Notes under the pieces: generated by a model
Databases searched by the model: none
The model's input: the letters and a program-made list of their open reading frames with translations, nothing else
What the model was told of the DNA's origin: nothing
Shown: piece after piece, positions 2,527 through 2,559 of the stretch
How positions within the stretch are numbered: position 1 is the first letter of the stretch
Layout: each line of letters begins with the position of its first letter
Made by a program: the position numbers and the translations under genes
From: Escherichia coli
Lineage (GTDB): Bacteria > Pseudomonadota > Gammaproteobacteria > Enterobacterales > Enterobacteriaceae
Assembly (NCBI RefSeq): GCF_003334315.1
Contig: NZ_QOWR01000095.1
DNA: 5,360 bases
Strand: one strand, 5' to 3'

Positions 2527-2559
2527 AGATTACCTCTCAGTGTGAAACGGAAGGTTGTG

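Follow-up and report, generated by a model that had tools for sequence, protein, structure and literature searches.

The gloB and yafS genes of Escherichia coli stand head to head, and the question is where, in so little space, the transcription of each gene begins, and what follows where the two transcripts meet. We addressed it in a stretch of 5,360 nucleotides (the window), which is the E. coli mltD-gloB-yafS-rnhA-dnaQ-aspV region; a window coordinate plus 232256 gives the MG1655 coordinate, the offset being constant. In the MG1655 RefSeq record the order is mltD (−), gloB (−), yafS (+), rnhA (−), dnaQ (+) and aspV, with ykfO (+) embedded in gloB, and the gloB and yafS boundaries in the annotation of strain 720632 agree with it (Table 1). 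A megablast search with positions 2300-2800 returned matches of at least 95% identity in 5,425 of 5,426 complete E. coli genomes, always under gloB and yafS annotations.

GloB is glyoxalase II. YafS binds SAM with a Kd of 0.68 uM, and its knockout has no growth phenotype. From the shared gloB-rnhA-dnaQ neighbourhood and the methyltransferase type_11 domain we infer that yafS is the ortholog of kerV. The KerV paper describes a gloB-kerV-rnhA-dnaQ neighbourhood, without naming yafS, and reports that kerV adjoins gloB in 87% of 197 proteobacterial genomes.

Table 1. Features of the gloB-yafS-rnhA-dnaQ region, in order along the window.
Feature	Window	MG1655	Strand	Basis
gloB CDS, hydroxyacylglutathione hydrolase, 251 aa	1771..2526	234027-234782	−	ORF list, RefSeq annotation
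ykfO, 10-codon small ORF embedded in gloB	2032-2064		+	MG1655 record
Candidate yafS −35, TTGTCA, 19-bp spacer, on gloB codons 10-12	2492..2497		+	BPROM (Ozyamak 2010)
yafS extended −10, TGTTAAGAT (TG 2514-2515, hexamer TAAGAT 2517-2522), on gloB codons 2-5	2514..2522		+	BPROM (Ozyamak 2010), PWM, conservation
gloB-yafS spacer, 33 bp	2527..2559	gap between 234782 and 234816		Sequence
yafS transcription start site (A), 31-nt leader	2529		+	Three published maps
gloB Shine-Dalgarno GAGAGG (plus strand CCTCTC), 6 nt before ATG	2533..2538		−	Sequence
yafS Shine-Dalgarno GGAAGG, 5 nt before ATG	2549..2554		+	Sequence; conserved across loci
yafS CDS, class I SAM-dependent methyltransferase, 240 aa	2560..3282	234816-235538	+	ORF list, RefSeq, Pfam PF08241
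Weak candidate gloB promoter: −35 TTGATT 2726-2721, 17 bp, −10 AATCTT 2703-2698, on yafS codons 47-56	2698..2726		−	PWM rank 52
rnhA CDS	3279..3746	235535-236002	−	ORF list, RefSeq
rnhA-dnaQ spacer, 64 bp, start sites for both genes	3747..3810			Published start maps
rnhA start site, 5′ end of the rnhA/antisense-yafS/gloB transcript	3784	236040	−	SMRT-Cappable-seq operon table
dnaQ		236067-236798	+	RefSeq

The gloB and yafS start codons are separated by a genuine and conserved 33-bp gap

The initial annotation had placed 33 bp between the two start codons, and this is exact: the sequence and the RefSeq boundaries concur, with the gloB ATG read as CAT at 2524-2526 on the minus strand and the yafS ATG at 2560 on the plus strand. 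Both Shine-Dalgarno sequences that it had assigned to the spacer were found in the sequence (Table 1). On the gloB side, ACCTCT is present at all 12 non-redundant loci except Tenebrionibacter, with a one-base difference in Lelliottia WAP21 and Enterobacter Bisph1. The spacer measures 32-34 bp at 16 of 16 Enterobacteriaceae loci compared (Escherichia species, Salmonella arizonae, Lelliottia, Kosakonia, Enterobacter, Tenebrionibacter and others), at which GloB identity falls as low as 62%.

Four 50-kb samples of MG1655 yielded 32 divergent CDS pairs, among which this gap was the smallest (33, 38, 54, 64, 69 and 88 bp for the six shortest, 475 bp for the longest; median about 165 bp). The yqfB/bglA pair, at 38 bp, comes close, and gaps of 38 bp or less were found for 1 of the 23 pairs in the three samples chosen independently of the gloB/yafS locus. 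The gap falls in roughly the lowest 5% of divergent pairs and is conserved, but it is not unique. Taken with the MG1655 samples, its conservation at 16 loci shows that its size reflects more than chance.

If one of the two start codons were wrong, the 33 bp would be an artefact of annotation. Two GTGs lie in frame upstream of the yafS ATG, at 2542 and 2557, the yafS protein record stands at version 2, an earlier start having been revised, and the K. pneumoniae annotation has a shorter yafS of 669 nt. Use of either GTG, however, would shrink the gap rather than widen it. Conservation of the YafS N-terminus begins exactly at MKPAR at every locus except Tenebrionibacter (MKPAS), and because the spacer is 32, 33 or 34 bp long in different genera, the reading frame upstream of the yafS ATG is not kept. 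A Shine-Dalgarno sequence is well placed for the ATG at 2560, but the mapped yafS leader leaves only 13 nt, with no such sequence, ahead of the GTG at 2542. Extension of gloB is impossible: the ORF list, which takes the first start codon after a stop, holds no in-frame start codon upstream of 2526. We regard an artefact at either start codon as very improbable.

The two opposite-strand Shine-Dalgarno sequences and the two ATGAA start regions together form an imperfect palindrome. A hairpin in which each Shine-Dalgarno sequence would pair with the other's complement was considered and discarded, as the folds were no more stable than those of shuffled sequences (z = +1.6, +1.1 and −0.04). An Rfam search found no RNA family in or near the spacer and returned only tRNA-Asp.

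yafS is transcribed from an extended −10 promoter within gloB

The initial annotation reasoned that each promoter must lie inside the 5′ coding sequence of the other gene. For yafS this is correct, and the whole promoter fits within the first 12 gloB codons; for gloB the 'must' does not follow, as discussed below. The 5′-end mapping that had been proposed as a check is already available for yafS, and three independent published maps put its start at 2529. Cappable-seq gives a plus-strand start at MG1655 234785 with a relative read score of 23.2, SMRT-Cappable-seq a monocistronic b0213 (yafS) transcript starting at 234784, and 5′ tag sequencing a start at 234785 with 38 reads and a 31-nt UTR (Kim 2012). 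This start is 3 nt past the gloB ATG and 7 nt after the end of the −10 hexamer at 2522. K. pneumoniae shows the same geometry: its yafS start, mapped to 261958 with 59 reads, falls 3 nt past the gloB ATG (261955), and the sequence upstream is nearly identical (Kim 2012).

The promoter had also been predicted. Ozyamak 2010 remarked on the 33 bp and used BPROM to place a yafS promoter in gloB (TTGTCA / TGTTAAGAT). The predicted start, number 470 of 500 positions, corresponds to 2529 in the window, and a partial gloB deletion was designed in the same study to spare this promoter. In our own PWM scan, which allowed 15-19 bp spacers, gave a bonus for TG and used approximate hexamer frequencies, the yafS promoter ranked 4th of 10,636 window positions, and the predicted start coincided with the observed one. 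The built-in promoter scan did not detect it, because that scan admits spacers of 16-18 bp only and the yafS spacer is 19 bp. The initial annotation had missed this −10 since it is of the extended type and is paired with a poor −35 at that spacing.

The motif TGnTAAGAT has the features of an extended −10: TGn precedes a hexamer with A at position 2 and T at position 6, and the primary 5′ end, published from triphosphate-specific capture, falls 7 nt past the hexamer, within the 6-8 nt of this class. As in other extended −10 (TGn) sigma-70 promoters, the TG stands one base before the hexamer and the −35 is poor and badly spaced. What sets it apart from the usual members of the class is that a divergent gene's first codons contain the entire element. 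The −35 varies between genera (TTGTCA, TTGTCC, TTATCC) and is probably of minor importance, and this variation is suggestive of a promoter active independently of a good −35. The predicted fold of the yafS leader is less stable than those of its shuffled counterparts (z = +1.6).

Symmetric bidirectional promoters reportedly share a −10 region and have start sites about 18 bp apart. We rejected such a promoter at the yafS −10, as the complement of TAAGAT, ATCTTA, is not a −10 match, and a minus-strand start about 18 bp upstream of 2529 would land within the gloB CDS.

The yafS promoter coincides with constrained gloB codons

Across genera, TGnTAAGAT, TGnTAAGATTCAT and the A at the start site are invariant, with 17 of 17 sequences matching for both TGnTAAGAT and TGnTAAGATTCAT. 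To put this against the background of the gene, we counted invariant third bases in 12 diverged gloB genes, where they occur at 23 of 246 codons (9.3%). The third base is invariant at gloB codons 2, 3, 4 and 6, and codon 5 keeps it in 11 of the 12 genes. The binomial probability of at least four invariant codons out of five at a rate of 0.093 is approximately 3.5e-4; the five-codon region was fixed beforehand from the start-site data.

Leu3 of GloB is always encoded by CTT although leucine has six codons. Codon 4 (2515-2517) is always A-n-C, encoding Asn, Thr or Ile. Its two fixed bases supply the T of the yafS −10 hexamer and the G of the TG motif, and the base that varies corresponds to the unconstrained 'n' of TGn. 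Conserved synonymous sites this early in gloB can also reflect selection for its own translation initiation. The locus illustrates cleanly how a promoter can occupy the opening codons of a neighbouring gene, here restricting both synonymous sites and the residue at position 4 of GloB.

gloB can be reached from the distant rnhA promoter

No gloB promoter fits in the spacer. In the minus-strand PWM scan, which covered 2527-3300, the match nearest to the gloB ATG was about 97 nt away, and the built-in scan gave two weak minus-strand matches inside gloB itself, at 2519-2491 and 2498-2470. The SMRT-Cappable-seq tables list gloB only in a 'novel' operon, b0214|b0212, from 236040 (−), in one context in each of two media. 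The rnhA promoter used by this transcript is about 1.26 kb upstream of gloB, and the RNA, at least 2.0 kb long, is antisense through all of yafS. The observation comes from one study, whose method selects cDNA longer than about 1 kb and could miss a gloB-only RNA of about 0.9 kb; the long transcript may be a minor species. It is the mirror image of the distant-promoter arrangement that the initial annotation had named as contrary to its view, and the promoters internal to yafS that this view called for are at best weak. The initial interpretation was right for yafS and over-stated for gloB.

The path from rnhA to gloB appears open. The yafS and rnhA CDSs overlap by 4 nt, so that no intergenic terminator is possible between them, and a scan of 1600-4000 found no terminator-like site on the minus strand. 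The segment antisense to yafS has a C/G ratio of about 1, with local windows of up to 1.85, examined with Rho-dependent termination in mind. The 3′ ends of the yafS and rnhA-gloB transcripts were not found in the SMRT-Cappable-seq tables.

It is also conceivable that gloB is driven essentially by promoters of its own in the 5′ coding region of yafS, the rnhA read-through being incidental noise. The best candidate, TTGATT/AATCTT (Table 1), has a predicted start at about 2691-2692, some 165 nt before the gloB ATG, and weaker candidates lie at about 145 and 97 nt. In K. pneumoniae, gloB starts were mapped at 93 nt (7 reads), 142 nt (3 reads) and 165 nt (7 reads) before the ATG, compared with 59 reads at the yafS start (Kim 2012), and the hexamers and spacing at the farthest of these (262120, 165-nt UTR) are identical to those of the E. 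coli candidate. Short gloB RNAs could have been hidden by the size selection of SMRT-Cappable-seq, and a plasmid on which 1 kb of upstream DNA precedes gloB, too little to reach the rnhA promoter, overexpresses GlxII 'from its native promoter'. On the other hand, the E. coli start sites in Kim 2012 include that of yafS but none for gloB; the candidate motifs are all weak, the best of them in 52nd place; conserved synonymous sites do not cluster in the 5′ part of yafS; and gloB appears only in the rnhA-gloB operon in both media. Sole reliance on such promoters is a real possibility, which we lean slightly against.

We think instead that gloB is fed by both rnhA read-through and weak internal promoters, the latter proposed for E. 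coli from the K. pneumoniae starts and the matching motifs. The Cappable-seq data used here are plus-strand start sites, and an E. coli gloB start inside yafS that is stronger than assumed here may exist. Our literature search found no dedicated study of yafSp, a gloB promoter or the rnhA-gloB transcript.

Transcripts overlap at both ends of yafS

As yafS starts 3 nt past the gloB ATG, every gloB mRNA overlaps the yafS transcript, and the description of the pair as face-to-face overlapping transcription units is upheld by the published maps, which show head-to-head genes with transcripts overlapping at their 5′ ends. In the survey of Conway 2014, transcript 5′ ends overlapped at 136 of 388 divergent E. 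coli operons (35%), by 168 nt on average; overlap was present at 75% of convergent operons, and 18 sense transcripts fully overlapped opposite operons. ExcludonFinder 2025, which drew on overlaps present in at least 50% of E. coli RNA-seq samples, lists gloB-ykfO among 16 divergent overlaps and yafS-rnhA among 165 convergent ones; its divergent entry pairs gloB with the embedded ykfO, not with yafS. The gloB/yafS junction resembles the divergent excludons of these two surveys in the overlap of its transcript 5′ ends. It differs from a strict excludon, which is defined by a mutually exclusive regulatory outcome, in that it is known from the overlap alone.

At the other end of yafS, its stop codon (+) and that of rnhA (−) share 4 nt at 3279-3282. 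The tail overlap is 4 nt at most enterobacterial loci, 41-47 nt at three and 0 in Lelliottia V86, where the genes abut; one further locus (L018) is a frameshifted assembly and is uninformative on this point. No terminator-like hairpin was found near the two stops on either strand, which means that the yafS and rnhA transcripts end inside, or run through, the other gene.

With rnhA and gloB co-oriented and listed on one transcript in a single published table, and yafS, with its own start site, between them on the opposite strand, the locus would fit the definition of a noncontiguous operon. This is the only mildly new angle that it offers. The arrangement is like that of menE-menC-MW1733-ytkD-MW1731 in S. 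aureus (Saenz-Lahoya 2019), and as in a noncontiguous operon the yafS mRNA is complementary over its full length to the central, untranslated part of the listed rnhA-gloB transcript. It differs from the S. aureus operon in that the co-transcript is known from one dataset and the locus is outside the published E. coli list: ExcludonFinder names three E. coli noncontiguous operons, and gloB/yafS/rnhA is not among them. If it is one, the catalogue probably missed it because ykfO is annotated as the neighbour of gloB.

The overlaps could go further, with colliding polymerases and the cutting of fully complementary RNAs by RNase III preventing yafS and rnhA/gloB from being expressed together. The rnhA-gloB transcript in SMRT-Cappable-seq is consistent with this, both flanks of yafS are listed as overlapping-transcription pairs, and the 32-34 bp head gap recurs across Enterobacteriaceae together with a tail overlap of 0-47 nt, abutment included. 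In P. aeruginosa, moreover, kerV rises in late log phase while gloB, rnhA and dnaQ fall. However, rnhA is co-oriented with yafS/kerV in Pseudomonas and Thioalkalivibrio, so that the anticorrelated expression in Pseudomonas is independent of the enterobacterial architecture. Overlap as common as that reported for divergent and convergent operons does not in itself imply regulation, the locus is absent from the three catalogued noncontiguous operons, and loss of yafS leaves growth unaffected. We consider mutual exclusion of this kind unlikely.

A bolder formulation, which we judge quite unlikely, would have rnhA and gloB form a conserved noncontiguous operon of Enterobacteriaceae with yafS nested in it, YafS/KerV being set antagonistically against RNase HI and glyoxalase II. 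Should the rnhA/antisense-yafS/gloB transcript prove functionally important, the locus would be a conserved chromosomal noncontiguous operon of E. coli, which would extend a known concept and not add a new system.

A compact junction of two housekeeping-type genes

The spacing of gloB and yafS has already been described and the yafS promoter already mapped; the locus is an ordinary compact divergent junction and no new kind of element. It is, with a high degree of confidence on our part, best explained as an evolutionarily fixed head-to-head junction of two housekeeping-type genes. The yafS gene is transcribed from the sigma-70 promoter of extended −10 type in gloB codons 2-5, and its mRNA, starting at 2529, has a leader of only 31 nt that is unstructured and carries a Shine-Dalgarno sequence of its own. 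Part of the gloB mRNA would come from the rnhA promoter at 3784, through rnhA and about 750 nt antisense to yafS, a path that has no terminator because the yafS and rnhA CDSs overlap tail to tail. Another part probably comes from weak promoters in the first 60 yafS codons.

It follows that every gloB mRNA carries the complement of the yafS mRNA 5′ end, both ribosome-binding sites included, and the long form that of the whole yafS mRNA; RNA polymerase bound for gloB also has to cross the yafS promoter. Some mutual dampening by transcriptional interference or antisense pairing might be expected, probably modest in extent.

The layout matters for genetic work at the locus. Any allele in which the gloB 5′ end is deleted or tagged lacks the yafS promoter, and a deletion or cassette in yafS sits within the transcript that feeds gloB. 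The phenotypes of Keio-type gloB, yafS and rnhA mutants can therefore be mutually polar. The gloB allele of Ozyamak 2010 was built around this polarity problem.

The rnhA/dnaQ junction and gene order in relatives

The initial annotation had pointed to a similar arrangement at rnhA/dnaQ, with 64 bp between the genes; RefSeq bears out this figure, and across genera the gap is 52-65 bp. The rnh and dnaQ promoters here are a classical overlapping, divergent pair (Nomura, Aiba and Ishihama 1985). Published maps place dnaQ starts at 3765, 3735 and 3681 (MG1655 236021/236020, 235991 and 235937), the first with 122 reads at 236021 (Kim 2012), and the rnhA start at 3784. An extended −10, TGGTAGACT, precedes the dnaQ start at 3765 (3750-3765, +), and K. 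pneumoniae has the same sequence and start.

The gloB/yafS junction is like this one in being head to head, with a very short spacer and mRNAs that overlap at their 5′ ends, and in having an extended −10 promoter, as one dnaQ promoter is (TGGTAGACT). The two differ in that the rnhA/dnaQ spacer holds one start per gene, whereas the gloB/yafS spacer holds only that of yafS, with no mapped gloB start within 90 nt. As a separate point, dnaQ has an in-frame ATG three codons upstream of the annotated one, at 3802 (246 aa) versus 3811 (243 aa).

A protein search with YafS returned only Enterobacteriaceae among the 120 matches listed. At two Thioalkalivibrio loci (L019 and L020, 2501-4600), yafS, rnhA and dnaQ lie on the same strand, yafS and rnhA have an 8-nt overlap or a 7-nt gap, and there is no adjacent gloB. 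Judging from this gene order, the inverted rnhA of enterobacteria appears to be the derived arrangement.

Other sites in the window

A plus-strand start lies inside gloB, antisense to it, at 1962 (MG1655 234218; Cappable-seq score 9.96), 70 nt upstream of ykfO. Our own scan predicted it exactly (TTGATT, 17 bp, TAACTT; 1927-1962, rank 23), and its promoter coincides with a cluster of invariant synonymous sites at gloB codons 191-198. RNA from this start could extend toward yafS.

A second invariant synonymous cluster covers gloB codons 214-235 (approximately 1822-1887), with the tracts CTGATTTAATT and GAAACA...TTGCAACA in the gloB sense. It overlaps a BPROM-predicted mltD promoter at MG1655 234109-234135, and it may be an extra mltD promoter or a regulatory site. 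In the 71-bp gloB-mltD spacer, TTGTCA, 17 bp and TATGAT at 1732-1760 (−) predict a start at about 1725, which fits the published mltD starts at window 1723 (MG1655 233979) and 1726 (233982). Between genera, the mltD leader hardly varies.

Toward the end of the window, the tRNA-Asp gene aspV occupies 4675-4751 (+). About 170 bp further on lies an ORF at 4923-5300 (−), presumably related to the C-terminal part of IS1 InsB, which it resembles. The region downstream of aspV is strain-variable, being occupied by yafT in MG1655 and by a DUF4942 gene in strain 720632.
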